Below, one piece after another: positions 15,320 to 64,000 of a stretch of 64,000 nt of DNA. Positions within the stretch are counted from its first letter, which is position 1; the number at the start of each line of letters is the position of its first letter. Position numbers and translations under genes: made by a program. Below the pieces are notes generated by a model. That model was not told the origin of the DNA. It made no database searches and saw only the letters and a list, made by a program, of their open reading frames with translations. The DNA is taken from positions 1 through 64,000 of the IMG/VR virus record IMGVR_UViG_3300005613_000028; one strand, written 5' to 3'. The DNA comes from a virus.

Positions 15320-17821
15320 ATGGAAGATTATGTAATTCATTATGGAGCGGATACTTCTGATGCTGTTAGACAAATCCGTAAATTAGATGCTATTAATGCA
15401 ACAATGGCTAAATCTTTGGGAAAAAATTTTCAAAGAGCTACAGATGTTATTAAAACTAGCCTTTCCCAAATTTCTCAAACTAAAGGAGTTAAAAAAGTTG
15501 GGAAAGATTTTAAAACAGTTACTACAGAAGTATTTCAAGCTGGAACGGTAATTAAAACTACTAATGGCAAATATAAAAATTTTATAGAAACTTTAACAGT
15601 TGTAGATGGTAAATTAAAGAAAACTAAAGGCTCTTTAAAAGATGTAACTAAACAATATACTCAAACAGTACAAAAAACCCAAAAAGCTTCTAAACATACC
15701 AAAACTTTTGGTGAAAATTTAGCTTTTTTAGGAAAGCGAGCTCTTTTAGTTATACCTGTATGGTTGCTATTAAGAGGAGCTATGACTGCAGTTATTAGTT
15801 TATTTAAAAATGGTGTAAAAGATATTATTGAATTTGATAAAATTTTACAAAAAGCTAAACAAAATTTGCAAGGCACTGGGGCAGAAATAGAAAGGAATTT
15901 TAAAAGATTAAAAACTTTAGTTACCAAATTATCTTTGGAAACTGGAAAAGGTGTAGAAGATATTACTAGTGCATTTCAGAGATTTGCAACTGTTGGTTTA
16001 GGTTTTGAAGAAGCTTGGGCAGGAGCCGAAGCATCTACTAAAGCTTCTATAGTTTTATTTGGGGATTCTGAAAAAATTGCCAACTCTTTAGCTCGTACAT
16101 ATAAAGTATTAGGTAAGACTATGGATTCAAATTTAACTCCTAATGAAAAAATGTTAAAAATAGTTGCACAATTACAACAACAATGGAAGGTCAATGCTTT
16201 TACGATTAATGAAATGGCTGGAGCTTTGGAGAGATTTGCTCCTGTAGCGAATACTGCTGGATTTTCTATGGAACAAACTATTTCTTTACTTTCAAGTTTA
16301 CAATCTGCAGGGATTAGAAGTACAAGAGCAGGGCGTTTATTAAGTACAGCAATCATTAAAATGACACAAAATTTAGATAAATTAGCACCTGTATTAGGTA
16401 TTAAAGTTAATCCAGCTATGGATGATACATTTACAGTTTTTAGACGTGTGTTATTAGCTATTAAAGATTTAAATAAACAGAGTAAATTAGCTCCAGAAGC
16501 TACTGAAGCTATTGCAGACATTTTCGGTGGAGTTCGAGGTGGACAAACTGTTAGAGCTTTGATTGCATTGCATGATACTTTGGAGAATAATTTAAAATTA
16601 ACTGGAGATATAAAATTATTTAATAAAGCTTTAGCAGAAGTTACAGATTCTATTAGTCGCCAAGCTGAAAGATTTAATAATTTAAAGAAAGAAGCTGGAA
16701 AGGCTTTATTAGTCGGAATAACAGGAGCGGATGATTTTAAGGATTCTCTAAAAGCTGTTAATACCGCTATGAGTGTTTTAGTTGATACAGGCTCAGTTGT
16801 TGGGGAAACTATTGGAAAACTATTCGCTTTTAATATAGCTTCTCCATATGGTTCAATTTTAGTGGATTTAAAGAAAATTAGGGATTATGCTACTGAGATT
16901 CATTTTGATATAAGTCAAGCTTTCGCTGATAAATTAAATGCTGATGAATTGATTAACTTATTAGCTAGAATAAGAATATCTATGGAAGAGGGAACTTTTC
17001 AAATAGATAAAAGAACAATAGATATATTAAAAAATAAATTAAAAGATTTAAAATCAGGAGTAAAAAAAGAGTTAGAAAAAGGTAAAGATATTGAAGTTGA
17101 GGTTCCAGTTACTTTATCTGTTAGACAACAAGAAGAAATTGGAGAACAGATTTTAAAGTTGGAACTGGATAGAATAAAAGCTACAGGAGCTTTAGAATCT
17201 CAATTATTATTAGCTGAAAAAACTTTGGCTAAACAATTGGGATTATCCAGAACCAATTTGGATTTAGTTAAAAAAGAACTGGAATACCAATACGCTTTAA
17301 CACAAGAAAAGAAAAATCAAACTAAATTACAATCTGATACTATTAAACTTTTTAAAATAGCTCAGACACATGGAACAGAAACTGCAAAAAGAATTGGAGA
17401 TTTATTATCAGGAGATATAGATTTATCAGATTTTGGTCGTCGTTATAAAGATGAATTAGAGGTTGTTAAGAAAGAATTTAAAAGTTTTTTTGAAACGCAA
17501 CAAGCTTTGCAATTTTTTAAAGGTGAAAGAGTTACGCAAGATCCAACCTTGCGTGGTGGGACAAGAATTATAATTCCAGATGAGGCTATCAGAGCTGTTA
17601 GACCAAGAACTTATGATCCAACTGTAGCCTTAAAACAAATTAAAGCTGAACGTCAATTATTAAGAATGGAATCTCAAGTTGATGTAAATATAGAAGCAAA
17701 ATTAGACCCTGCAGATTTAAAAGGTTTTGCTGAAAAGATTGGTTTAGAAGTTGCTAATAGTTTAAAAACTAAAGGAACTAAGATTAATGAAGCTTTAAAT
17801 GAAGGAATTAGTAATTATTAA
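15320..17821 (+). CDS. tail tape measure protein
   Basis: 833 aa, long helical protein with a hydrophobic segment 'LAFLGKRALLVIPVWLLLRGAMTAVISLF'. Canonical position in the tail module. Confidence 0.85.
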   Translation: MEDYVIHYGADTSDAVRQIRKLDAINATMAKSLGKNFQRATDVIKTSLSQISQTKGVKKVGKDFKTVTTEVFQAGTVIKTTNGKYKNFIETLTVVDGKLKKTKGSLKDVTKQYTQTVQKTQKASKHTKTFGENLAFLGKRALLVIPVWLLLRGAMTAVISLFKNGVKDIIEFDKILQKAKQNLQGTGAEIERNFKRLKTLVTKLSLETGKGVEDITSAFQRFATVGLGFEEAWAGAEASTKASIVLFGDSEKIANSLARTYKVLGKTMDSNLTPNEKMLKIVAQLQQQWKVNAFTINEMAGALERFAPVANTAGFSMEQTISLLSSLQSAGIRSTRAGRLLSTAIIKMTQNLDKLAPVLGIKVNPAMDDTFTVFRRVLLAIKDLNKQSKLAPEATEAIADIFGGVRGGQTVRALIALHDTLENNLKLTGDIKLFNKALAEVTDSISRQAERFNNLKKEAGKALLVGITGADDFKDSLKAVNTAMSVLVDTGSVVGETIGKLFAFNIASPYGSILVDLKKIRDYATEIHFDISQAFADKLNADELINLLARIRISMEEGTFQIDKRTIDILKNKLKDLKSGVKKELEKGKDIEVEVPVTLSVRQQEEIGEQILKLELDRIKATGALESQLLLAEKTLAKQLGLSRTNLDLVKKELEYQYALTQEKKNQTKLQSDTIKLFKIAQTHGTETAKRIGDLLSGDIDLSDFGRRYKDELEVVKKEFKSFFETQQALQFFKGERVTQDPTLRGGTRIIIPDEAIRAVRPRTYDPTVALKQIKAERQLLRMESQVDVNIEAKLDPADLKGFAEKIGLEVANSLKTKGTKINEALNEGISNY

Positions 17822-26402: not shown

Positions 26403-26594
26403 TTATTCATAATTCGCCTGCTTTTTTAAATATCTAAATTTATAACTACCACAAATATTGCAATAAATATAAATTAAAAAATATTGAGAACTAAAATCTT
26501 CTGTAAATTCTTTTTGTTCAATATCATTAGTAAGTTTTCTACACATTGGACAATAATGCATGACTATCTCCAGAAAATAATAATATAATAACAT
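26403..26594 (-). CDS. small Zn-ribbon protein
   Basis: 'CPMC..(29 aa)..CNIC'. Confidence 0.45.
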   Translation of the reverse strand: MLLYYYFLEIVMHYCPMCRKLTNDIEQKEFTEDFSSQYFLIYIYCNICGSYKFRYLKKQANYE

Positions 26595-27205
26595 AAACCT
26601 TCAATTGTAAAAGTAATTATATCACTCCAAAGAAAATTAACTTCTTTATTAAAAATTTTTTGTTTAAAACTACCTAACCCTCTCCAACTAATTATGGCAT
26701 TAACTAAAATTATAACAATACTTCCAATTATATACCAAATCCAATTTCTTTTAAGAATAGGAATTGATAATAAAGCTATACATTTTAAAATAGAAATAGT
26801 AGAACGAGTAAAATAATTTGCAATTCTATGAGCTTTTGGAATAGATACAAATTTACGAAATAACAATGTAAAAAATCTTCCTATATCAGACCCAGAATCT
26901 CCTTTTGGTGGCCAAGAAGCATCTGGAATCCCATAGCCACAGCTATAAGCTCCCCATAAACTCATAATCGTAATATGCCATAAAGCTATAATCCAACCTA
27001 TATCTGAATTTAATCCACTTGTAATATACGCACAAACTGTTATAATGGAAGTTATACCAACTCTTCTCCATAATAAAGAAGTTCCCTGACTTCCTGCATA
27101 ACTCCCCAAAAATCCTATAATAACAGCGAAGCTAGGAATTTTTAAGATACTAAATAAAATTGATAATTTTTTCTTATACTTCTGCCAAGTTTCTTTAATT
27201 TTCAT
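26564..27205 (-). CDS. polytopic membrane protein (213 aa)
   Basis: Five to six hydrophobic helices. Family not recognised. Confidence 0.55.
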   Translation of the reverse strand: MKIKETWQKYKKKLSILFSILKIPSFAVIIGFLGSYAGSQGTSLLWRRVGITSIITVCAYITSGLNSDIGWIIALWHITIMSLWGAYSCGYGIPDASWPPKGDSGSDIGRFFTLLFRKFVSIPKAHRIANYFTRSTISILKCIALLSIPILKRNWIWYIIGSIVIILVNAIISWRGLGSFKQKIFNKEVNFLWSDIITFTIEGLCYYIIIFWR

Positions 27206-27310
27206 TTTTTAATCCTAGTTTAAGTTTTGGAATAAAAAAGAGACAACATAGAGTAAATATAGCGGAAATAATTACTAGCCAATTAAATCAAAATTTATCT
27301 CTGATAACAT

Positions 27311-27496
27311 TTAAACCCTTGTTTTATATTTATTAGGATTTTTCTTAACTTTCTTATAAACTGATTTTAACCACTCTTGCCAATCTTTAGCTTCTTCAAA
27401 AGAATCAAAACCTTCTAATATTATTTCTTTAGTAACATTCTTCCCACAGTTTTCAATTTTTAATGTTAATATACTATTATATTTAGGCATTACCAC
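27311..27496 (-). CDS. hypothetical protein (61 aa)
   Basis: ORF in the operon. Confidence 0.4.
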   Translation of the reverse strand: MVMPKYNSILTLKIENCGKNVTKEIILEGFDSFEEAKDWQEWLKSVYKKVKKNPNKYKTRV

Positions 27497-27741
27497 CAGC
27501 CACCTTTAGGTTTTACAGGTTTTGCTACTGTTGTTTTTCTTTTTTCATTGGCATTTGGTTTCTTTAACTTTTCTACATAAAATTCTAAAGGTTTAATTTC
27601 TTCCATTTTCTTACCTTCTTTAATAGCCAAAGCATAATCCTTTTCTCTTTTAGCGTGCCATTTTTTCAATCGAGTTAACTTATTCTGATAAGTAATATTG
27701 CTACGCCCTTTTGTTAATCCATGTTTCATGATCTGCTCCAT
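27490..27741 (-). CDS. basic hypothetical protein (83 aa)
   Basis: K/R-rich ORF that overlaps both neighbours. Confidence 0.45.
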   Translation of the reverse strand: MEQIMKHGLTKGRSNITYQNKLTRLKKWHAKREKDYALAIKEGKKMEEIKPLEFYVEKLKKPNANEKRKTTVAKPVKPKGGWW

Positions 27742-27941
27742 TCATATATTCCCTTAATATTTAAAATTAATAAACCTATAGATAACCACAATAAAGGCGA
27801 ATTACTCATTATTATGGATTGTCCTGCATATAATAAATTAGCCAAACTATTAGCATAAAAACCAATCACTGCTTTTTTGCCTAATTTATATACACCATAA
27901 ATAAAAAACAAATTTCCTAACCAACCCAATAATTCTATCAT
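27726..27941 (-). CDS. 3-TM mini membrane protein, PnuC-repeat/SemiSWEET-like or holin candidate
   Basis: 71 aa with three helices. 'FYANSLANLLYAGQ..LLILNIKGIYEW' resembles the C-terminal 3-TM repeat of PnuC transporters. Confidence 0.4.
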   Translation of the reverse strand: MIELLGWLGNLFFIYGVYKLGKKAVIGFYANSLANLLYAGQSIIMSNSPLLWLSIGLLILNIKGIYEWSRS

Positions 27942-28288
27942 TTTTTATCCTTAATAATTTTGTAAGCTATTCTTCGAATTTGATATAATTTTTTTATCAT
28001 CTTATTTTCTTCTTGAGTAATTTCTAATTTCGAAATACTTTTTAAAACTTTTTGATATTTATAAAATTTTTTGTTTAAAACTTCTAAAATTTTAATAGTT
28101 ATTTCTCTTTCTGAATTAAAAATGGAACTTAAATATTCTATTATAATTTTTTCTTTAAAATATATACCTATAAAAAAGAGAATCCACCCAACTAAGGTTC
28201 CTAAAGAAAAAAATGGAAACTTATTTACTAAAGAAAAAGTTGCACACATAATAATCAAACCTTTATTGGTATGGATAAATTTTAACAT
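27938..28288 (-). CDS. membrane protein (116 aa, 2 TM plus a basic tail)
   Basis: Hydrophobic N-terminal half. ATGA overlap with the downstream gene. Confidence 0.5.
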   Translation of the reverse strand: MLKFIHTNKGLIIMCATFSLVNKFPFFSLGTLVGWILFFIGIYFKEKIIIEYLSSIFNSEREITIKILEVLNKKFYKYQKVLKSISKLEITQEENKMIKKLYQIRRIAYKIIKDKK

Positions 28289-28297
28289 TTGTATTCC

Positions 28298-28480
28298 TTA
28301 TTCTGAGAGCTTTTTTAAAACTTTATCAATTGATCCTAAAGTTAAATAAAGAGCCCAAACCTCTTCTTCTGATATAGCTTTAGTCATTGATATAAGTTTA
28401 CAGATACGTTTCATTAAGATTTCATTTATCAAGTTATTCTCCTTTATAACAAGTATAACATATAAATTAAGAGGTGTCAA
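28298..28480 (-). CDS. small hypothetical protein, with the track start probably too far upstream
   Basis: The track start at 28480 lies inside the promoter -35 box. A likelier start is TTG 28432, 6 nt after AAGGAG (28444-28439), giving about 44 aa. Confidence 0.4.
   Translation of the reverse strand: MTPLNLYVILVIKENNLINEILMKRICKLISMTKAISEEEVWALYLTLGSIDKVLKKLSE
28452..28480 (-). promoter_or_regulatory. sigma70-type promoter P1 (TTGACA-N17-TATACT, TGT extended -10)
   Basis: - strand reads TTGACACCTCTTAATTTATATGTTATACT. -35 at 28480-28475, -10 at 28457-28452. One of four near-identical copies. Confidence 0.75.
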
Positions 28481-28985
28481 TGGGTTTTCTTATTGCCCAA
28501 TCTCCAACCTTTTCATTTTTATTTAACTCTGAAAATTCATAAACGAGATTTCTTTTTTTACAAAATAATTCTACTCCAGCTTTTACTCTTGTTGGTTTTT
28601 TAGAAGTATAATCATGACCAGCTAATATACCACCTTTGTTAATCAAAGGCCACCACCAACCCATTTCCTTATATAAATATCCTGCAGAATGAATATTATC
28701 TAAATAAACATAATCAAACTTTAAATTCAAAATCTGAGTAGCTAGTTGACTTTCCATTTTCAATATATATACATTTTTTAAATCCATAACTTGACATGTC
28801 GTTTTTAAATTATCAAAAGCATTTTTATTATATTTTAAGTCCCAGGAATCAATTAGATATAACTGTTTTATAGTCAAATTTTTATAAAGTTCTTTAGAAT
28901 AATTACCACACATAACACCTACTTCAGCCACAGTTACTTTTTTATTTTTGAACTTTTCTTTTGCTAGTTGCAATGAATATCTCAT
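28467..28985 (-). CDS. class I SAM-dependent methyltransferase (Methyltransf_24-like)
   Basis: 'VAEVGVMCGNYS' (motif I), 'LYLIDSW', 'YVYLDNIHS' and 'GGILAGHDY'. Confidence 0.65.
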   Translation of the reverse strand: MRYSLQLAKEKFKNKKVTVAEVGVMCGNYSKELYKNLTIKQLYLIDSWDLKYNKNAFDNLKTTCQVMDLKNVYILKMESQLATQILNLKFDYVYLDNIHSAGYLYKEMGWWWPLINKGGILAGHDYTSKKPTRVKAGVELFCKKRNLVYEFSELNKNEKVGDWAIRKPIDTS

Positions 28986-28988
28986 AGT

Positions 28989-29651
28989 TTACTCCATTAT
29001 AATTGCTTTAGAGGTTGGTTTAGTTAAAATCTTTTTTGGGGTTATAGTAGAAATAAATTTATAATTATCATTCAAAGCCCTTTTTGTAAAAATAACATGA
29101 ATGGGAGTATCAACCATTTCTGCCAATGCTGTAGCCCATCCTTGTTGAGCTACTACTAATTTACATGAAGAAAACATTTTTACTAAATCCAAAAAAGGAT
29201 ATTTTTGTTTTAAATAAATCACATCAGAATATTTAGCAGTATAATCAGAAAATTCCTTGAATTTTGGAATTAAAGGAAAAGTTCCTTTTGCCCCATTCAT
29301 AGCATTATAAGGGGGTATAACAATCACTGTATTAAGCAAGGTTAAGTCAAGAAGACTTAGATATTTTAAAGAGCTTGTAAAAGGAAAATAAGGTAATTTA
29401 GCTCTATTTAACATATCTTCCCATTGTGTTGTGGTAAATAATCCTTTCCCTGATAAATATTGGCAATAATAGCTTACATTATTATACATTTTAGAATGTA
29501 AATCAGCAGTTTGAACAGGCAAATCTTTATATACTTCTGGATACTTTGTCAAAATCATGTAATCATTTGGGCGATTGGCCAATAACCATTCGACTATAAC
29601 TCTTAAATAAATAGCATCGCCAAAACCAGAAGCCCCTTTAACTATCTTCAT
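28989..29651 (-). CDS. glycosyltransferase-like protein (short GT9/heptosyltransferase-like)
   Basis: 'GASGFGDAIYLRVIVEWL' and C-terminal 'LVVAQQGWATALAEMVDTPIHVIF' resemble the N- and C-terminal GT9 motifs. At 220 aa it is shorter than typical GT9 enzymes. Confidence 0.4.
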   Translation of the reverse strand: MKIVKGASGFGDAIYLRVIVEWLLANRPNDYMILTKYPEVYKDLPVQTADLHSKMYNNVSYYCQYLSGKGLFTTTQWEDMLNRAKLPYFPFTSSLKYLSLLDLTLLNTVIVIPPYNAMNGAKGTFPLIPKFKEFSDYTAKYSDVIYLKQKYPFLDLVKMFSSCKLVVAQQGWATALAEMVDTPIHVIFTKRALNDNYKFISTITPKKILTKPTSKAIIME

Positions 29652-30327
29652 TTTCTTGAACCTTTTTAAATGCTTGGATTAAAAATTCATTCATTGATTG
29701 ATGTTTCATTTTATTAACTTCATAACCTTGTTTTCTTAAAAATTTAGCCATATATTCATTATACTCATGCGTTTCTAAAATATTAGTACATATATATAAT
29801 CTTTGGCTTTTTCTAATTGGAAGTTCTCTTAAAATTTGAAAATAATTAGAAATAATCCCTCTCCAAACATCAAAAGGTTTTTTATTAATATGTAAATCTA
29901 TTTGAGTATCATTTTTTAAAGAGATAATAGACTTATCATTAGAAATTGTAAAAATTTGATATTTGCATTGGATCATATTTTGAAATAAACCTTTAACTTT
30001 TGAATTATTTAAATGCTCCATTACATCAAAACTTGTAGCAACAGTATATCGCCTTAAATCTTTTTTTAATGTAATATCTCCTTGTTTACAAAATTTATTT
30101 TTAGGTTTAATCCAATCTATTCCATAAGCTTCAAATTTCTTTTTTCTAAAAAATTTAACAGTTTCCCCTGTCCCTGAACCTAAATCAATTATTTTTCCTT
30201 TTAAATAATCTTTGTAATGTGGATATAAACGAATACCAGGGCAATGAGAATACTTGGCTCTACCATAATCTTTTATTTCATCATAAACTTTTTCATATAA
30301 ATCGGCATTAATATCTACTTTATCCAC
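29638..30327 (-). CDS. class I SAM-dependent methyltransferase
   Basis: 'KIIDLGSGTGETVKFF' (motif I), 'AYGIDW' and 'SFDVMEHL'. Confidence 0.7.
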   Translation of the reverse strand: MDKVDINADLYEKVYDEIKDYGRAKYSHCPGIRLYPHYKDYLKGKIIDLGSGTGETVKFFRKKKFEAYGIDWIKPKNKFCKQGDITLKKDLRRYTVATSFDVMEHLNNSKVKGLFQNMIQCKYQIFTISNDKSIISLKNDTQIDLHINKKPFDVWRGIISNYFQILRELPIRKSQRLYICTNILETHEYNEYMAKFLRKQGYEVNKMKHQSMNEFLIQAFKKVQENEDS

Positions 30328-30920
30328 TTAATTGCCTTTCGTTGTTGTAAATAGGTAAGAATATTTTTTTCTTTATTTGGAGCATGTCCGCCTGAACCAT
30401 CCCATCTTTCATTAAGATTATGCACCCCAGAATCAAAACAATCAAAACCAATGATTGTAATTGGATTTTCAAATTTAAGGAAAAATAAGATGGAGGATAA
30501 TCCAACTGTAGGCATAAACCCACCTAATATCTCTATTTGCTCTAAAAGCTCTTCTTTTGTTAAACTAATTAATGGACAAAACCACCAATCTTTTCTTAAT
30601 TTATAAATCCATCTATAATCTTTATCTTGAATTTCACAATTTTTTAATAATTCAGTCATATCCGCATTAGGGCATTTATTAATTAGAAATTTAACTCCTT
30701 CTTCTATCAATTCTTCTTTACTCTTTTTTATATTTCTTCCAAAATAAGAAAAAAAGATGTCAGTTCTATCACTGTTCACCTTTTTATAATTATTAACTCT
30801 AACTATTATATCAAAAGAATCATACCATTCTTGATTCTTATTAATTGCAGAAGGAGCCCCTCCTACTATAAGAAGTTTTTTATTCTTAATAAAATCTATT
30901 AATTTATCTCTATTTCCCAT
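30315..30920 (-). CDS. glycosyltransferase-like protein (CstII/GT42-like or DUF115/Maf-like)
   Basis: 'KKLLIVGGAPSAINKNQEWYDSFDIIVRVNNY' parallels the N-terminus of CstII-type sialyltransferases (IIAGNGPSL..DVFRCNQFY). Confidence 0.45.
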   Translation of the reverse strand: MGNRDKLIDFIKNKKLLIVGGAPSAINKNQEWYDSFDIIVRVNNYKKVNSDRTDIFFSYFGRNIKKSKEELIEEGVKFLINKCPNADMTELLKNCEIQDKDYRWIYKLRKDWWFCPLISLTKEELLEQIEILGGFMPTVGLSSILFFLKFENPITIIGFDCFDSGVHNLNERWDGSGGHAPNKEKNILTYLQQRKAIKWIK

Positions 30921-31017
30921 TTAATTTCCTATGAAATTTAGTGTCACACCATTGACACTTTCCTTTTCTTTTCCACTTCTTATTAGGCATTTTTCTTTTA
31001 CAATATTTACATTTCAT
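30910..31017 (-). CDS. 35-aa Zn-ribbon micro-protein (not in ORF track)
   Basis: MKCKYCKRKMPNKKWKRKGKCQWCDTKFHRKLNGK. ATGA overlap with the upstream stop, and it overlaps the next start by 11 nt. Confidence 0.45.
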   Translation of the reverse strand: MKCKYCKRKMPNKKWKRKGKCQWCDTKFHRKLNGK

Positions 31018-31793
31018 ACAAATGGTTTCCTAAATTTTTCAATTAATTTTTCAATTTCTAAACTAGCTCGTTTTTGTAAAATATGTCTAGGTTCTTCTGC
31101 TAATATTTCAAAAAATTCATCATAAGTAATTTTTGGAAAAACTTCTATTTTAGATTTAGGAGACACATTAAAAATTTTAACATTTGGATTCACTTTTTTA
31201 AACTCATTATATAATTTAGCTGATGGTTTATTATAACAACCTGTATGATAGTTTCCTTTTTCATCTTTACCTATTCCACATTGCAACTTCCCAGAAGATT
31301 TTTTATATGTTCCAATTTTTTGTTTCCCTAAAATTTTCTTTTGGTAGAAATGAGTTTTACCATTAATCTCACAAAAATCCATTCCCAATAAATAAATTTC
31401 TTTAAAACCTAATGCTATACCTACAGTTAAAGCAAACATCCCTGTTAACACTCTGGAATAAAAACCTTTTTCCCAAGAATCTACACCATGATAATTTTTA
31501 CTTGTTTGAAGCATTGTTAAATTAGTACCTTTTTGACATTTATGGTGAGCTCCATTTCCAATCTTTCCATCAAACATTCCAATTACTAAATCATATTTAT
31601 CAAGTTCTTGTTTATTAGTTTTATAGAAACCCCAATCGCCATAAAACGGTACAACTGGCTTAAAGAAATAAATAATGGAATTGATGCCAAAAGTAACTTC
31701 ATTGGCTATTCGTTTCCAAAGAAATAAATCAATTCCTTCTTTCATAGAATTTCCAGCTCCCAAAATAATTAATCTGTTATTTTTTGGATTCAT
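31014..31793 (-). CDS. glycosyltransferase-like protein, paralogous in layout to 30315..30920
   Basis: 'NRLIILGAGNSMKEGI..VTFGINSIIYFF' has the same GxGxS / hydrophobic-N pattern. Confidence 0.4.
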   Translation of the reverse strand: MNPKNNRLIILGAGNSMKEGIDLFLWKRIANEVTFGINSIIYFFKPVVPFYGDWGFYKTNKQELDKYDLVIGMFDGKIGNGAHHKCQKGTNLTMLQTSKNYHGVDSWEKGFYSRVLTGMFALTVGIALGFKEIYLLGMDFCEINGKTHFYQKKILGKQKIGTYKKSSGKLQCGIGKDEKGNYHTGCYNKPSAKLYNEFKKVNPNVKIFNVSPKSKIEVFPKITYDEFFEILAEEPRHILQKRASLEIEKLIEKFRKPFV

Positions 31794-36825: not shown

Positions 36826-38061
36826 TTACACCACATTTGTTACAACTTTTTTCTTTTTAGCTTTCTTTAAACTTTTGGCATTATACGCCTCTAATTCTTT
36901 AATTATATCATAACCTTTAACATTGTCAGTAACTTGTAAATCAATTTTAATAGAATCTCTGGTTCCATTTGGGTAGAATACATGAACATTTTGACTTGCT
37001 CTAGATTCTAATTGTAACGCATTATCACTATAAGCATTTGCACCTACTAATGAAGAACCTCTGGAATAAACATCTCCAGTTCTACAAGAATGAAGATGCC
37101 CCGATAAAACAAAGTCAATTCTTATTTTTTGGGAAGTATATTTTCCTTTTATCTTTTGAATAGCCTGTTCCATCGAATTAGATTTGAGTTGATTTCCATG
37201 TATCAACAAAATATTTTGACCAGACACTTCAATGACTTTTTCTAATAAATTACCATCTAACATTCTAATATTTGAATTTCTAAAAAGTAATTTAAGAATA
37301 TTATAAATTGTATAATCATAATTATCAGAAGCCATCATTTCAGTCCAACCGACATCTTTAGTAATTCTACTTTCATTTCCTACAACATTTGCTACAGTTA
37401 CTTGATAATTTTTAGTAAAGTCTAAAATAAAATGTTCAAGGAGATTAACAGCTAAAAAAGTAGCTTTACTTCTATTTGTAGCTTCACTTAATAATTCATC
37501 TAACCGACGATCACTATTCATTAAATCACCTGTCATAGCTATTAAAACTTTTTTAATACCTAAAGAATTTAAATAAGTTTTAGCTCTTTCTGCAAATAAT
37601 TTTAATCTTTGCGAAGCTATAAGAAAATCATATTTATTATGGACTAAATTAACTAGCTCATTAAAATGAGCATCTGTTATATGTACGACTCCAGTAGCAC
37701 CGTTGTTATCAATTTTAATTTTTGTAGTCGCAAACTTTGGTAATTTATATTTAGAAAAAATATCAATTAAATTTTTATTATATTCAATTAAAGCATTTTC
37801 GGATTTAACCTTTTCTCGTAATTGCTTCCTACTAATTCTGGATAAATCTTTATATTTTTGATTAGCGGATACTAATTTTGAATTTTGTTTAGAAATCTCA
37901 AAATCTTCTTTATATTCAATTTTTCCTTGTAATCTCAATTTAGCTAAATGTGTATAAACAGTTCTTTCACCACAACCAAAAATCATAGAAATTTCAATTG
38001 CATTTTTTCCTTCATTATATAACTCAATCAAAAATTTATCATCTATTTTACTTTTTGACAT
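36826..38061 (-). CDS. HTH domain fused to a calcineurin-like metallophosphoesterase
   Basis: N-terminal 'AIEISMIFGCGERTVYTHLAKL' HTH. 'VVHITDAHFNE', 'MTGDLMNSDR', 'VVGNES', 'LLIHGNQ' and 'LSGHLHS'. Confidence 0.6.
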   Translation of the reverse strand: MSKSKIDDKFLIELYNEGKNAIEISMIFGCGERTVYTHLAKLRLQGKIEYKEDFEISKQNSKLVSANQKYKDLSRISRKQLREKVKSENALIEYNKNLIDIFSKYKLPKFATTKIKIDNNGATGVVHITDAHFNELVNLVHNKYDFLIASQRLKLFAERAKTYLNSLGIKKVLIAMTGDLMNSDRRLDELLSEATNRSKATFLAVNLLEHFILDFTKNYQVTVANVVGNESRITKDVGWTEMMASDNYDYTIYNILKLLFRNSNIRMLDGNLLEKVIEVSGQNILLIHGNQLKSNSMEQAIQKIKGKYTSQKIRIDFVLSGHLHSCRTGDVYSRGSSLVGANAYSDNALQLESRASQNVHVFYPNGTRDSIKIDLQVTDNVKGYDIIKELEAYNAKSLKKAKKKKVVTNVV

Positions 38062-38503
38062 TTTTTCTCCTTTTACTTTTCTTTATATATTTAATTTCTA
38101 AAATAGCATATAATAATAGACTTGCTATACCTGCTATTTGATAAAATCCCATTCCTATTATAATTCCTATAGGTACAATAGCAAAAAGAATTGAAGCAGA
38201 GGTTAAACCTTCGATCCCTGTCTTTGTTTTAATAATTAAACCTCGACCTAAAAATCCTATAGCAACTAAGCAATAAGCTGGTATCCTAGCAATATTAATC
38301 CTAGTTAATTCAGATAAACCAGATAAGTTCATTAATTCTAAGTTTAAAATCCCCATTAAAGTTGCCCCCAAGCAAATTAATGTAACTGTGCGTTTACCTC
38401 CATTTTTATCTCTACGTTTACGCTCATCGCCTATAACCATACCTAAAATAACAGCACAGAGTAATTTAATAATTACATCTACATTTAATACAAATTCCAT
38501 CAT
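38048..38503 (-). CDS. MgtC/SapB-family membrane protein
   Basis: 'LLCAVILGMVIGDERKRRDKNGGKRTVTLICLGATLMG' matches the MgtC N-terminal signature (GlERe...aGlRT..lv..G). Four to five TM helices. Confidence 0.6.
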   Translation of the reverse strand: MMEFVLNVDVIIKLLCAVILGMVIGDERKRRDKNGGKRTVTLICLGATLMGILNLELMNLSGLSELTRINIARIPAYCLVAIGFLGRGLIIKTKTGIEGLTSASILFAIVPIGIIIGMGFYQIAGIASLLLYAILEIKYIKKSKRRKNVKK

Positions 38504-48406: not shown

Positions 48407-48970
48407 TTACTCCTTAAATTTGAAATATTCTATTTCTTTTTTACAATATTTATTAACTTCTTCTAACGCTTTTGGTGTATAATAAGATTTCCAATCATAT
48501 TTTCCATAAAAATGAGTTAATTTATTCTTTAAAGGTAATTTAAATTTTGTATCTCCAAATACTTTAGCAATTTGTGTAGTTAAGCCATTTTTATCATATA
48601 TAATTATCTTATTTGCTACAATTTTATCATCAATACTAATATAATCTAATTGATTAAATAATAACTCTTTATGTGCAAACTTTAAAACAAAATCTTCAAA
48701 AGTCTTAAATGATTCAGATTTCTTAATCATACATCTAAATCTATATAAACTAACCAATCTTTCATAAGTATTTCTAACGATGGTTACTATATTCCAATTT
48801 TTATATTTTTTATAAATTTCAGTATTAATTTGTGTATGGGTCTTTTGATATACTCCCCATTGTTTTTTATTTATTTTTCCATAATTTAGAAAAACTGCCC
48901 CACCATTTTTAGGAATATGAATAAATAGAATTTTTTCTTTTGGATATACTAGCATTATCTTAACCACCAA
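48407..48970 (-). CDS. sulfotransferase (Sulfotransfer_2-like)
   Basis: PAPS 5'-phosphosulfate loop 'FIHIPKNGGAVF' and 'IVRNTYERLVSLY' (RNPxxRxxSxY-type). The likely true start is ATG 48955. Confidence 0.65.
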   Translation of the reverse strand: MVVKIMLVYPKEKILFIHIPKNGGAVFLNYGKINKKQWGVYQKTHTQINTEIYKKYKNWNIVTIVRNTYERLVSLYRFRCMIKKSESFKTFEDFVLKFAHKELLFNQLDYISIDDKIVANKIIIYDKNGLTTQIAKVFGDTKFKLPLKNKLTHFYGKYDWKSYYTPKALEEVNKYCKKEIEYFKFKE

Positions 48971-56810: not shown

Positions 56811-57181
56811 TTCTTACTACTTCCTTTCTTCTCTTTTTCTAATAATAATTTGAATAAATAAGCTTGAGCATTAAACAGTAAGGCGCAAATACTTTCTTCT
56901 AAATCATCTTGCCCTTCATATCCTCTATGTTGAAGCCACATATCAAAAAAATGACGATAACATGATTTCATACATACATTTAAATGCTCTTCACCAAATA
57001 AATTTTGCCAATTATCAGAATCCCTTAAATTTCCATCAGATTGTACTCTGTGTTTATTCATATATTCAGAATATCTACGCATTACTAAAGGGCTATAAAA
57101 CCCCTCGAAATCTAATTTTCCTTCATTTGAATCTCTGGTAGCACCTGAACTAAACTGCCTGATTTTATTTTTCTTGACCAT
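56807..57181 (-). CDS. dATP/dGTP diphosphohydrolase N-terminal-domain-like protein
   Basis: 'FSSGATRDSNEGKLDFEGFYSPLVMRRYSEYMNKHR..NLRDSDNWQ' resembles the F.tGA.RD...gK.r.dL.sP pattern of PF18909-type phage proteins. Confidence 0.45.
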   Translation of the reverse strand: MVKKNKIRQFSSGATRDSNEGKLDFEGFYSPLVMRRYSEYMNKHRVQSDGNLRDSDNWQNLFGEEHLNVCMKSCYRHFFDMWLQHRGYEGQDDLEESICALLFNAQAYLFKLLLEKEKKGSSKK

Positions 57182-58767
57182 TACTTTGAACCTTTCTTTA
57201 CTTTTAATTTATATTTCTTATCTAAAAAATCTAATAATTGTGATTGATTTGGAAAAAAGTCCCCTCCGCTTCCAAATACCCAACCAACAAAACTTTCTGG
57301 GTATTCTTCTCTTCTCATTGTTTGAATAACATAAATTGGTTTTTTTAATTTACGACAATAGCCAGCTTCATAAAATGTCCCACAATTATGTACAATAAAT
57401 CCATTAGCTATAAAATTTCCTGTTCCTGTTGTTAAATCATAGACATTTTTACGTGAGGAAATAGAACTTTTTATTTTTGAACTTAACCCAGATAAATATA
57501 ATTGATAATTTTTTCTTTTGTAATCGAATTGTGTTGGTATAAAAAATGCATAAGATTTTGCAATTGAAAAAATATATTCTCCGCTTCCATTAAGTTTTCT
57601 TCCAAATATACTACATGGTTTATTTCTTTTTTGAACCGAAAATTTTATATTTAAATCATTACAATATTTTTTAAATATTTTTCTATTTTTAATATGAACT
57701 TTAGCTTGAGAATATCGGATGCTCCATTTATCATAATATCCATCTGCATCTATAGCTCCTGCAAGCCATCCCCTCTTAAAATCAAATGAAAGTGGGTGAT
57801 TATCTTTCCAATCTCTTAATTCAAAATAATATTTCTTTTTACTGACTATTAAAATATAATGATATTTTTTACTGTTTTCACAAAATCTTTTAGATATTGT
57901 TGATGTAATACCAAATATCTCATATATTTCTTGCACTTTTTTTATTTCATGTAACTTATCTGTTACAATAATAACTTGATGTGAAGACCAACTTTCTTGA
58001 AAACATCCATCATTCTGTAAATAACCTGTCAACCATCCTTTTAAATATGTTTTTGATATTGGCATTTGTTTTATACTAAAAACATTATTTATATTTTGTA
58101 CTTCTTTATAAATACTTCCATGTTTCTTATTTCTAGTTAAAAATTTATGTTCTGGAGTGGCATAAATAGTATTATTTTTATTATCATTGATTTTTAAACA
58201 TTTCTTAAATCCTGATTTTTGAGAATTATAAACTTTTGTTTTTACCAATTTTGTCTTATTTTTTAATTTTTTAAATCCTAAAACTTCATCTCCGACTTTA
58301 ACATCTTGAATATTTTTTTGTGACCAATCTGACATTAAAACTTTTGTATTTTTTGCTAAACAAGGCGAATCTCCAGCATCTATTTTACAAATTAAAAAGT
58401 TACTCTGTTCAACGTAAAAATCATCGCCTGGAATTATTTTCAAAAAGGGTTTATTATTTTCATCTAAATAAATATAATGTTTCCCTTCCCAAATTAAATC
58501 CGACCCTTCTGCCACTTTATCATTATGCCCAGAATTCAACCAACCATTTATTTTTTTATGGTATTCTAACGGATTTAATCCAACTTTAGACTGCTCTGCA
58601 GTACAAGGATTAAAAATATAGATAGGATTATCATTTTCATCTATACGTTTTTCTAATTCAATTTGTAAAGATTCCCTCCAACCTGCACCTCCATCTTTGG
58701 CTTTAGTTTTACTCATCGCTCCAATTAAATAAGTTTTAAGCCAATTATTTATAATTATTTCTTTCAT
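57181..58767 (-). CDS. nucleoside 2-deoxyribosyltransferase-like protein interrupted by an intein
   Basis: Exteins (135 + 67 aa): 'TYLIGAMS..GWRESL..FLICKIDAGDSP' | 'CGTFYEAGYCRKLKKPIYVIQ' align with the paralog 58805..59332 ('VYLAGIMLG..DWRYKI..IIVANFNQFGSKRPSVGTYFECGMALAFNKPLILI'). Confidence 0.7.
   Translation of the reverse strand: MKEIIINNWLKTYLIGAMSKTKAKDGGAGWRESLQIELEKRIDENDNPIYIFNPCTAEQSKVGLNPLEYHKKINGWLNSGHNDKVAEGSDLIWEGKHYIYLDENNKPFLKIIPGDDFYVEQSNFLICKIDAGDSPCLAKNTKVLMSDWSQKNIQDVKVGDEVLGFKKLKNKTKLVKTKVYNSQKSGFKKCLKINDNKNNTIYATPEHKFLTRNKKHGSIYKEVQNINNVFSIKQMPISKTYLKGWLTGYLQNDGCFQESWSSHQVIIVTDKLHEIKKVQEIYEIFGITSTISKRFCENSKKYHYILIVSKKKYYFELRDWKDNHPLSFDFKRGWLAGAIDADGYYDKWSIRYSQAKVHIKNRKIFKKYCNDLNIKFSVQKRNKPCSIFGRKLNGSGEYIFSIAKSYAFFIPTQFDYKRKNYQLYLSGLSSKIKSSISSRKNVYDLTTGTGNFIANGFIVHNCGTFYEAGYCRKLKKPIYVIQTMRREEYPESFVGWVFGSGGDFFPNQSQLLDFLDKKYKLKVKKGSK
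57385..58362 (-). mobile_element. 326-aa intein with a LAGLIDADG homing endonuclease domain
   Basis: Block A 'CLAKNTKVLM', block B 'ATPEHKF', two LAGLIDADG motifs 'LKGWLTGYLQNDGCF' and 'KRGWLAGAIDADGYY', block G 'GFIVHN' followed by +1 Cys (57382-57384). Confidence 0.85.
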
Positions 58768-58804: not shown

Positions 58805-59332
58805 TTATAATTCCCAATTATATATAGCTGAATTCGTTCTTTTATAAAACCAATTCAAAATTTTTGAATCTAAAAATTCATCAACACTTTTATAAATTTC
58901 TACAGCCTGTGAAGTGAAAGGATGATTATTCCATCTTTCAAATTCATTTTCTGGTACAATTAAAATAAGGGGTTTATTAAATGCTAACGCCATACCACAT
59001 TCAAAATAAGTTCCTACACTTGGCCTTTTACTACCAAATTGATTGAAATTCGCAACAATAATATCAGCTTTTTTAATAGCTAGTTTATCTCCAGCATATA
59101 TAACTTTTCCAGAAATTTTGTTATTTGTTAATCCTTCATTATCAATCTCAGCATCAACTTCTCCATTCCAAGGGTCTAAGAAACAAATTTCATAAACACC
59201 TTTTCCTTTCCAATTTTTATAATGCTTACGAATTTTATATCTCCAATCTACTGTAGGTTTTTGATATTCACCACCTAACATAATACCAGCTAAATAAACG
59301 TGCATTATAGTTTTTGGAATTTCTTTAAGCAT
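58805..59332 (-). CDS. nucleoside 2-deoxyribosyltransferase-like protein (intein-free paralog)
   Basis: 'VYLAGIMLG', 'DWRYKI', 'ADIIVANF' and 'SVGTYFECGMALAFNKPLILI' fit the NDT/Rcl-like Rossmann pattern with the conserved Glu. Confidence 0.6.
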   Translation of the reverse strand: MLKEIPKTIMHVYLAGIMLGGEYQKPTVDWRYKIRKHYKNWKGKGVYEICFLDPWNGEVDAEIDNEGLTNNKISGKVIYAGDKLAIKKADIIVANFNQFGSKRPSVGTYFECGMALAFNKPLILIVPENEFERWNNHPFTSQAVEIYKSVDEFLDSKILNWFYKRTNSAIYNWEL

Positions 59333-63857: not shown

Positions 63858-64000
63858 ACAGTTGTTTTATTTAGCTTAAAGCGTTCAGCTAATTCTCTCA
63901 TATTATGAAATGGAAAACTTTTTCTTATAAATTTAACATCTTTTTCAGTTAATTTACTCCAAGAACATTCTTCTCCTCTAACCATAATATGTAATTTCAT
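63818..64000 (-). CDS. HTH protein of the type found in HNH/NUMOD4 homing endonucleases, possibly truncated by the window edge
   Basis: 'SWSKLTEKDVKFIRKSFPFHNMRELAERFKLNKTTVWEIIHRKIWRHI' matches the (a)KLte.dV..IR....s...lA..f.vs...i..I..g..W pattern. The ORF touches nt 64000. Confidence 0.45.
   Translation of the reverse strand: MKLHIMVRGEECSWSKLTEKDVKFIRKSFPFHNMRELAERFKLNKTTVWEIIHRKIWRHI

Follow-up and report, generated by a model that had tools for sequence, protein, structure and literature searches.

A recurrent methyltransferase and glycosyltransferase cassette of tailed phages and the probable acceptor of its glycan

The viral record IMGVR_UViG_3300005613_000028 carries an island of six tightly packed minus-strand open reading frames (ORFs) that appears to combine methyltransferases with glycosyltransferases, which raises the question of what these enzymes build and on which molecule. 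We analysed positions 1 to 64,000 of this record (hereafter, the window), in which the island occupies 28467-31793. The source contig is the 87,024-bp metagenomic sequence ena:ERZ27256772:k141_2609403, and about 80 of its 87 kb (~92%) was surveyed for gene content. An earlier note on the window had suggested that such a set could build or decorate a methylated glycan, and gene families, predicted folds, and co-conservation support this suggestion. The island represents a modular phage cassette in rearranged form. We assign a probability of about 0.5 to the reading that the product of this cassette is a short methylated glycan, carried most likely by phage virion proteins.

Predicted enzymes of the island

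All six ORFs were present exactly where the earlier note had placed them (Table 1). They are joined by overlaps of 4-14 nt or, in one case, separated by a 3-nt gap.

Table 1 Features of the island in the window.
Feature	Position	Strand	Description
gp1	28467-28985	-	172 aa; predicted class I SAM methyltransferase, Methyltransf_24 type
gp2	28989-29651	-	220 aa; predicted compact GT-B, GT9 (heptosyltransferase)-like fold
gp3	29638-30327	-	229 aa; predicted class I SAM methyltransferase, Methyltransf_23 type
gp4	30315-30920	-	201 aa; predicted minimal GT29-like (eukaryote-type sialyltransferase family)
Zinc-ribbon micro-ORF	30910-31017	-	35 aa; CxxC-x15-CxxC
gp6	31014-31793	-	259 aa; predicted CstII/Maf-type (GT42/DUF115-like) sialyltransferase fold
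Sigma-70-like match 'P1'	28480->28452	-	Within the 3' end of gp1

GT29 is regarded as an animal sialyltransferase family. The AlphaFold2 (AF2) model of gp4, with a predicted local distance difference test score (pLDDT) of 93.6, resembled this family: its top 20 Foldseek matches in the Protein Data Bank (PDB) were all GT29 enzymes (probability 0.99-1.00; TM-score normalised to the query, TMq, 0.5-0.63), including ST3Gal-I (2wnb, E 1e-6), ST6GalNAc2, ST6Gal1, and ST8SiaIII. The top matches in BFVD were annotated as GT29 or sialyltransferase and came from giant viruses, herpes/poxviruses, and an 'uncultured Caudovirales phage'. The window gp4 itself had no Pfam match at E<=1. PF00777 was matched by 16 of the 31 members of the gp4 family (best E 3e-7), and a canonical relative, L016, scored above its gathering threshold (26.0 vs 23 bits). 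Residues R41, D54, S58, G140, G158-F159-D160, H167, W173, H179, and E184 were invariant in the family. The segment V-G-G-x-P-S...D-x-I-V-R-x-N-N (R41/N43/N44) presumably corresponds to sialylmotif L, P137-T-x-G140...G158-F-D160 to sialylmotif S, and H179-x4-E184, with H179 as the candidate catalytic His, to sialylmotif VS; H167 likewise fits the patterns compared (motifs L, S, III, and VS). A residue-level alignment of the gp4 family to solved GT29 structures was attempted by profile-versus-PDB search, which did not reach GT29 chains. The structural model thus places gp4 as a predicted GT29-like protein of the sialyltransferase (GT-A variant 2) fold.

For gp6, a phmmer search matched CstII (1ro7/1ro8) with an E value of 3e-5. 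The gp6 family profile (A1) aligned residues 4-176 to residues 4-196 of CstII (E 3.9e-5) and also matched Maf (5mu5). Further matches were obtained with phrog_4603, labelled 'alpha-2,3-sialyltransferase' (E 1.2e-8), and with a hidden Markov model (HMM) of short DUF115 proteins (E 2.2e-8). Scores against Pfam were below the cut-offs, at 22.9 vs 34.6 bits for PF01973 (MptE-like) and 17.9 vs 25 bits for PF06002 (CST-I). The 65 homologues of gp6 were all metagenomic, and seven of them had precomputed PF01973 matches. The invariant segment T147-H-F-Y150 roughly aligned with the S-S-Y-A-F segment of CstII. These similarities point to gp6 as a remote, full-length relative of CstII; its counterpart in the canonical cassette described below is a DUF115-like gene, of which gp6 represents the long form. 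The earlier note had described gp4 and gp6 as two paralogous CstII/DUF115-like proteins resembling glycosyltransferases. This description fits gp6, but gp4 is GT29-like and the paralogy was not upheld: BLASTP was not significant, and hhalign gave a probability of 27% over one 26-column motif. The two proteins have in common just the sialyltransferase-type fold class.

The micro-ORF between them, noticed earlier as a CxxC..CxxC ORF overlapped on both sides, is a genuine gene, with conservation in the related contigs L001 and L004 (MKCKxCKRxLPNKxW...CxWCD). Its Pfam matches were weak zinc-finger matches only. Its junction with gp6 is an ATGA overlap and its overlap with gp4 is 11 nt; the micro-protein is translationally coupled to gp6. 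Nine distant homologues of gp6 contain an internal CxxC...CxxC insert instead, at approximately residues 110-140 (P0054-type). Because these homologues carry the ribbon inside the enzyme, the micro-protein is probably an accessory module of gp6.

The AF2 model of gp2 (pLDDT 90.2) matched GT9 heptosyltransferases exclusively, in agreement with the earlier reading of a short GT9-like protein. All of its top 29 Foldseek PDB matches belonged to GT9 (TibC 4rap, WaaF 1psw, WaaC 2gt1, and 3tov); TibC was the best (E 1.2e-5), followed by WaaF and WaaC, with TMq of approximately 0.6. The TM-score normalised to the target (TMt) was approximately 0.4, since gp2 falls short of the GT9 targets by roughly 100-170 residues. 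Neither gp2 nor the canonical GT9-like proteins had matches in Pfam (including PF01075), NCBIfam, or PDB sequences, and gp2 could be placed in no family by its sequence. Residue-level alignment of the gp2 family to GT9 enzymes was also attempted, and the profile-versus-PDB searches returned spurious matches. As modelled, gp2 would be a trimmed, two-lobed GT-B enzyme closest to heptosyltransferases. WaaC and WaaF are heptosyltransferases of the lipopolysaccharide (LPS) core, whereas TibC and BAHT perform protein O-heptosylation; TibC, the top match of gp2, glycosylates a protein in the cytoplasm.

The two S-adenosylmethionine (SAM) methyltransferases named in the earlier note both exceeded Pfam gathering scores. 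gp1 matched PF13578 (E 1.5e-7, 32.7 bits vs a cut-off of 26.3) and gp3 matched PF13489 (E 3.1e-8, 34 bits vs 27), and both are accordingly predicted to be Rossmann-fold class I SAM methyltransferases. The clan of gp1 is TylF/O-methyltransferase. In Pfam, gp1 itself matched PF13578 alone, with no PF05711 (TylF) match of its own. The protein in the gp1 slot of L004 is a TylF protein (PF05711, 51 bits vs a cut-off of 23), and that of L016 matched the O-methyltransferase family PF01596 (22.9 vs 22 bits). Enzymes of the TylF and O-methyltransferase types methylate sugar hydroxyls. The family matches suggest small-molecule or O-methyltransferase types for gp1 and gp3.

gp1 also matched PHROG 2675, which is labelled 'DNA methyltransferase'. 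This label, the location of the window island amid DNA-metabolism genes, and the report that phage glycosyltransferases can add heptose or Kdo (3-deoxy-D-manno-octulosonic acid) to 5-hydroxymethylcytosine (bioRxiv 10.1101/2023.12.21.572611) would suit DNA hypermodification, in which the glycosyltransferases and methyltransferases put a heptose- or Kdo-like sugar on a modified base and thereby evade restriction. In the known pathways, genes for a C5-cytosine methyltransferase, TET/5mYOX, or a thymidylate-synthase-type hydroxymethylase cluster with the glycosyltransferase (bioRxiv 10.1101/2023.12.21.572611), whereas none of these was found in the surveyed ~92% of the contig. The predicted folds are sialyltransferase-type and GT9-like, not T4 beta-glucosyltransferase-like or JGT-like, the methyltransferases are of the types given above, and the canonical cassette lies in head-neck operons. 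We consider DNA as the acceptor to be highly improbable.

Co-conservation of the cassette in phages

We scanned IMG/VR with the gp4 family. At least 125 contigs contained a GT29-like (GT29L) gene, and 86 non-redundant loci were labelled with HMMs. The canonical gene order is DUF115/Maf-like, GT9-like (GT9L), GT29L, Methyltransf_24 (MT24), and Methyltransf_23 (MT23). GT9L occurred within +/-6 genes of GT29L in 70 of the 86 loci and directly upstream of it in 62 of 84. MT23 was found within the same +/-6 genes in 68/86 loci; MT24 was near GT29L in 56/86 loci, and a DUF115-like gene in at least 47/86. All five classes were together in 22 of the 86 loci, which is a lower bound because many contigs are truncated. 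Searching 1.84 billion cluster representatives exhaustively, we obtained 206 GT29L relatives at E<=1e-10. The top 150 of these 206 representatives include natural fusions: six GT9L-GT29L, one GT29L-MT24 (P0126), and one DUF115-GT29L-GT29L. Synteny and fusions therefore indicate that these enzymes work in one pathway.

Dozens of unrelated viral contigs contain the same classes together, and the gene grouping is far beyond chance. The set also recurs, in rearranged form, in the 81-95 kb lineage to which the window belongs (L001, L004, L005, and L006). Thus, family and structure searches returned methyltransferase and glycosyltransferase families for the island, and its genes were strongly co-conserved in related and unrelated phages; the earlier note had named non-glycosyltransferase assignments or scattered genes as what would speak against its reading.

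In the islands of these relatives, a cupin gene (PF01050, mannose-6-phosphate-isomerase-type, 24.2 vs 23.6 bits; 131-136 aa) that is missing from the window lies between the zinc-ribbon and GT29-like genes (L001 10892-11287; L004 7893-8291; L005 6229-6639; L006 6481-6879). It may encode a sugar or sugar-nucleotide isomerase/epimerase. Two related contigs of 67 kb and 103 kb have the GT42-like gene alone (L007 13930-16819 and L008 11741-16268). Approximately 5 kb away, they encode a short-chain dehydrogenase/reductase (SDR), a cytidylyltransferase (PF01467), LicD, and a 915-aa LicD-GT2 protein, a set of the teichoic-acid/phospho-sugar pathway type.

Co-conservation and fusion with two more glycosyltransferases and two methyltransferases indicate glycan assembly, and this bears on whether the cassette serves some other cytoplasmic acceptor, such as a host protein or small molecule (for example, to disable a defence factor or redirect metabolism), or whether the DUF115 protein is an MptE-like pterin kinase acting with a BT1 transporter. 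The name of PF01973, MptE-like, would suit the latter, as would a BT1/major facilitator superfamily (MFS) transporter gene a few kb downstream in L001, L004, and L006. gp6 meets PF01973 just in the last 28 profile positions and below the cut-off, whereas its similarity to CstII extends across the whole catalytic domain; no BT1 gene lies near the island in the window. We rejected the pterin kinase as a naming artefact of PF01973, and this group of explanations as a whole appears unlikely.

Outside viral contigs, a survey of 185,579 species genomes found the GT29-like gene in seven contigs only, mostly from metagenome-assembled genomes (MAGs) of Betaproteobacteria. Close homologues of island genes, P0078 and L101, are filed under MAGs of 'Candidatus Heimdallarchaeota archaeon' and 'Candidatus Saccharibacteria bacterium'; the likeliest explanation is that phage contigs were binned into these MAGs in error. 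In 50,697 deposited phage records, tblastn searches with gp4, canonical GT29L, and canonical GT9L detected no GT29-like or GT9-like homologues, and neither tblastn with gp6 nor megablast with the island returned any match. The short DUF115-like gene alone has deposited homologues, in P1, Tetraselmis viridis virus S20 (TvV-S20), and Caulobacter and Pseudomonas phages. Phage-encoded glycan-building cassettes are a known kind of system; the composition of Maf-like, GT9-like, GT29-like, and two methyltransferase genes, its embedding among head-neck genes, and its breadth were not described in the literature searched.

Genomic position and the probable acceptor

A recognised head or neck gene was located within 9 kb of the cassette in 68 of the 86 loci. 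In most carriers, genes for the portal, the protease/major capsid, a collagen-repeat protein, and the adaptor Ad1 lie upstream, and those for the head-closure protein Hc1, Neck1, and the tape measure lie downstream or are interleaved; in L016, Ad1 and Hc1 stand between the DUF115-like gene and GT9L. No opposite-strand pair was present among adjacent labelled genes (0/405), the median intra-cassette gap was -10 nt, and 41 of 97 boundaries between cassette and structural genes were <=30 nt. The GC content of the cassette follows that of the phage across 39-72%. Co-orientation, tight spacing, and GC tracking therefore identify the cassette as a long-resident member of the late operon and not as an autonomous conversion module; classical conversion modules are autonomous and located near the attachment site. 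The complete chromosome of Pseudoduganella sp. UC29_106 (NZ_CP171977.1) contains a prophage with the canonical layout, at about 1,205,600-1,226,200 (L100).

Placement in the head-neck operon predicts late-only expression and silence in lysogens. It bears directly on whether the cassette remodels the host envelope or flagellin, adding heptose, nonulosonate, or methyl groups to the core of LPS or lipooligosaccharide (LOS) or to flagellin and so causing receptor loss and superinfection exclusion; another benefit would be that progeny are kept from sticking to debris. Late expression would leave scant time for envelope turnover before lysis, and in most carriers the cassette is co-oriented with the head-neck genes and overlaps or abuts its neighbours. 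In the window lineage, by contrast, the island lies in the early/replication arm, and early expression could change the surface in time. Small hydrophobic proteins are encoded just downstream of the island (26564-28288), and some carriers are temperate, as indicated by the integrase of the source contig and the Pseudoduganella prophage. The earlier note had seen no Wzx/Wzy or GtrA/B-like genes and concluded that the island did not resemble a serotype-converting cassette. We likewise found no flippase, polymerase, or GtrA/GtrB-type gene in the island, its flanks, or canonical cassettes, an absence that would still be compatible with an envelope target. Characterised GT42 and GT9 enzymes, among them the gp6 and gp2 relatives CstII and WaaC/WaaF, act on the LPS/LOS core at the cytoplasmic face before lipid flipping, so that no dedicated flippase is needed. 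Maf enzymes move CMP-activated pseudaminic or legionaminic acid onto protein in the cytoplasm, with flagellin as a target (bioRxiv 10.1101/2022.03.25.485807). Taken together, remodelling of the envelope or flagellin seems rather unlikely; it is nevertheless the main rival, with more credibility than the earlier note had given it, and more plausible than either alternative discussed above.

Modification of virion proteins is favoured by the late-operon context in most phages, by the existence of Maf and TibC as cytoplasmic protein O-glycosyltransferases, and by a precedent in mycobacteriophages. Virion glycosylation has been described for Che8, Corndog, and Myrna, where it affects the capsid and tail tube and involves Che8 gp110 and Corndog gp38 (Freeman et al. 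2023, as cited in PMC12363180 and PMC12619734). A glycosyltransferase and methyltransferase pair of Rhodococcus phages was interpreted likewise (PMC13313380). Among the targets listed in the earlier note (host surface polysaccharide or flagellin, virion proteins, and DNA), the comparative context thus favours virion proteins, and DNA is the least likely.

No membrane-spanning segment was predicted in the island proteins, and no nucleotide-sugar synthesis gene was seen in the surveyed ~92% of the source contig. The donors must therefore be made by the host, and the enzymes must act on them in the cytoplasm. In the mechanism that we propose, five soluble enzymes would assemble a short methylated glycan from activated sugars of the host. 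By analogy of fold, the donor of gp6 and gp4 would be a nonulosonic acid of the sialic, pseudaminic, or legionaminic type, activated with CMP, and that of gp2 would be of the ADP-heptose type. The Maf-like gp6, with the zinc-ribbon micro-protein as an accessory, would probably perform the protein-directed initiating step, GT9L and then GT29L might carry out consecutive extension steps, and gp1, presumably of the sugar O-methyltransferase type, together with gp3 would methylate the product. The acceptor would be one or more virion proteins, which would receive the glycan in the cytoplasm, either ahead of particle assembly or while it proceeds. The particle could benefit through shielding, stabilisation, or altered adhesion.

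Several observations weigh against a virion acceptor or weaken the enzyme assignments behind it. The position of the genes in late operons is correlative evidence, and in the 81-95 kb window lineage the island lies on the strand opposite the structural arm, among SbcCD-like, ligase, and polymerase genes. The structural proteins of the window have no collagen-like G-X-Y runs and no Ser/Thr-rich tails that would mark an acceptor. The collagen-repeat protein encoded after the portal was considered as a specific acceptor and rejected, since 21 of 44 carriers lack any cassette component. The sialylmotif mapping of gp4 is a putative match of patterns, as is that of the GD loop of gp2 to the catalytic Asp of GT9; profile-versus-PDB searches with the gp4 and gp2 families gave only spurious matches, namely to SENP7, a designed TIM barrel, and a periplasmic protein. 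The window offers few clues to the host, with no tRNAs and a PolB at most 23% identical to that of an uncultured marine virus. In genomes, the gp6 family was represented by one 66-kb contig, probably mis-binned, and by distant cellular DUF115 proteins.

The gene for the collagen-repeat protein directly follows the portal gene (L072 3910-4893; L016 6482-7582) and was found in 537 IMG/VR contigs. The protein has collagen-like G-K-D-G-x-D-G repeats, and its C-terminal domain (W-x-L-x-V-K-R-G) is conserved. Its label in PHROGs, 'portal protein', stems from its fusion to the portal in some phages. In its carriers, the DUF115-like gene is often alone, sometimes with GT9L or a methyltransferase, and the full set is less frequent.

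A wider reading, which we offer tentatively as possible and somewhat short of an even chance, is that the cassette represents an undescribed, widespread virion-glycosylation system of phages of Gram-negative and other non-actinobacterial hosts, with a Maf-like start and GT9-like/GT29 extension. Particle proteins would be capped with methylated, host-derived nonulosonic (sialic-like) acids and heptose. To our knowledge, phage-encoded virion glycosylation has so far been shown just for a few mycobacteriophages, in which it reportedly alters antibody recognition. If the wider reading is true, it would be the first sialic-acid-type decoration of phage particles and would reveal a functional prokaryotic-virus branch of GT29. 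Among the carriers, GC content extends from 27% in marine phages up to 72%, and sialylated virions would require particle surfaces in aquatic and soil settings to be rethought with respect to stickiness, stability, grazing, and receptor/lectin interactions. Compact (~200 aa) soluble enzymes of the sialyltransferase fold could be useful for glycoengineering, and the prophage of Pseudoduganella sp. UC29_106, a lysogen that provides a cultured model, would be a tractable experimental system. If the LPS core is the target instead, the cassette would represent a type of phage-driven surface conversion that needs no flippase. In both cases, a testable role is obtained for phrog_4603 and for the pmgO-type genes of bacteriophage P1, and P1 could model the minimal DUF115-only form.

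Surrounding genes and comparison with known systems

The window is a fragment of the genome of an uncultured marine tailed phage, with a GC content of 26-36%. A plus-strand structural arm extends to about 25.3 kb and includes the tape-measure gene at 15320-17821; most of its structural proteins had no PHROG match. The long minus-strand arm encodes PolB, RecA-like, prim-pol, and SbcCD-like proteins, ligases, ClpP, and an N6/N4 DNA methylase. A fourth glycosyltransferase gene (GT4, PF00534, 344 aa) directly precedes the gene for a 434-aa Laminin_G_3 protein that heads the structural arm (L092 7229-9584); the latter gene starts before the window and reaches into it at 36-815. This adjacency is a possible second link between glycosylation and a virion protein in this phage.

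No minus-strand terminator-like site was found in the 25-35 kb region. The promoter that the earlier note had placed in the last codons of the island, the sigma-70-like match 'P1' of Table 1, is present as a sequence (TTGACA-17-TATACT, 11/12 match, extended -10 TG) and is the top match of this kind in 25-35 kb. Promoter-like sites numbered 60 in this AT-rich region vs 64.2 +/- 8.7 in shuffled sequences. Because such sites are not commoner than in shuffles, the match is a consensus match only, and we rejected its regulatory role. Its position is such that it would drive genes downstream of the island, not the expression of the cassette itself.

The sulfotransferase gene that had been noticed at 48407-48970 on the minus strand was confirmed by matches to PF00685 (E 4.7e-8) and PF03567. 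It is 16.6 kb from the island, no evidence linking the two was found, and canonical cassettes elsewhere lack a sulfotransferase. The minus-strand ORF at 57181-58767 encodes 528 aa with an intein and a LAGLIDADG homing-endonuclease domain (PF14890, PF14528, and PF05203), and a nucleoside 2-deoxyribosyltransferase-like protein is encoded at 58805-59332. The BT1/MFS transporters of the relatives, of the folate-biopterin type, are encoded at 14805-15947 in L001, 13483-14667 in L004, and 10039-11223 in L006. They are accompanied by PnuC-like fragments and MgtC; in the window, MgtC is at 38048-38503. Past position 64000 of the window, genes for a tyrosine recombinase (PF00589) and a RuvB-like ATPase are present on the source contig (L093 6086-6898 and 4692-5735). 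The phage may therefore be temperate.

The nearest counterparts among deposited phages share part of the arrangement. In P1 (L091, NC_005856 79592-82150), the 'putative morphogenetic' pmg region contains pmgO, a short DUF115/Maf-like gene whose product shares 33% identity with a cassette member (E 6e-14), and pmgQ, automatically annotated as a glycosyltransferase. Both genes are non-essential by CRISPR interference (CRISPRi), which fits an accessory decoration. In TvV-S20 (NC_020840), DUF115-like genes, further glycosyltransferases, and a methyltransferase lie between the capsid genes and Hc1. Both phages differ from the cassette in lacking the GT29-like and GT9-like genes, and TvV-S20 has a GT-D-fold enzyme instead.

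The individual enzymes also resemble known families in part. gp6 has the G-x-G-x-S loop region at its N-terminus and the T-G...A-L-G...I-Y-L-x-G-x-D core of CstII and Maf (Campylobacter and Magnetospirillum), but it scores below the Pfam cut-offs, is encoded by a phage, and is followed by a zinc ribbon or, in distant homologues, contains one; compared with Maf, it has no flanking domains (259 aa vs 666 aa). gp2 shares the two-lobed GT-B fold of WaaC/WaaF and TibC/BAHT, and its best structural matches are all GT9 enzymes, whereas its length is 220 aa vs 320-400 aa and no match was found at the sequence level. gp4 has the predicted fold of the GT29 enzymes of animals, giant viruses, and pox/herpesviruses, and the canonical relative L016 passes PF00777. 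In contrast to these enzymes, gp4 has approximately 200 aa, lacks a membrane anchor, stem region, and disulfide framework, and would be a cytoplasmic enzyme of prokaryotic viruses that is partnered with or fused to a GT9-like enzyme.

As a system, and in the mechanism proposed for it, the cassette is most similar in kind to that of the mycobacteriophages, in which phage-encoded soluble glycosyltransferases act on host donors in an accessory role, with methyltransferases nearby in some actinobacteriophages (PMC13313380). It differs in its families, which are GT29-like, GT42/DUF115-like, and GT9-like, and in its carriers, which are prophages of Betaproteobacteria and uncultured phages with a GC content of 27-72%.

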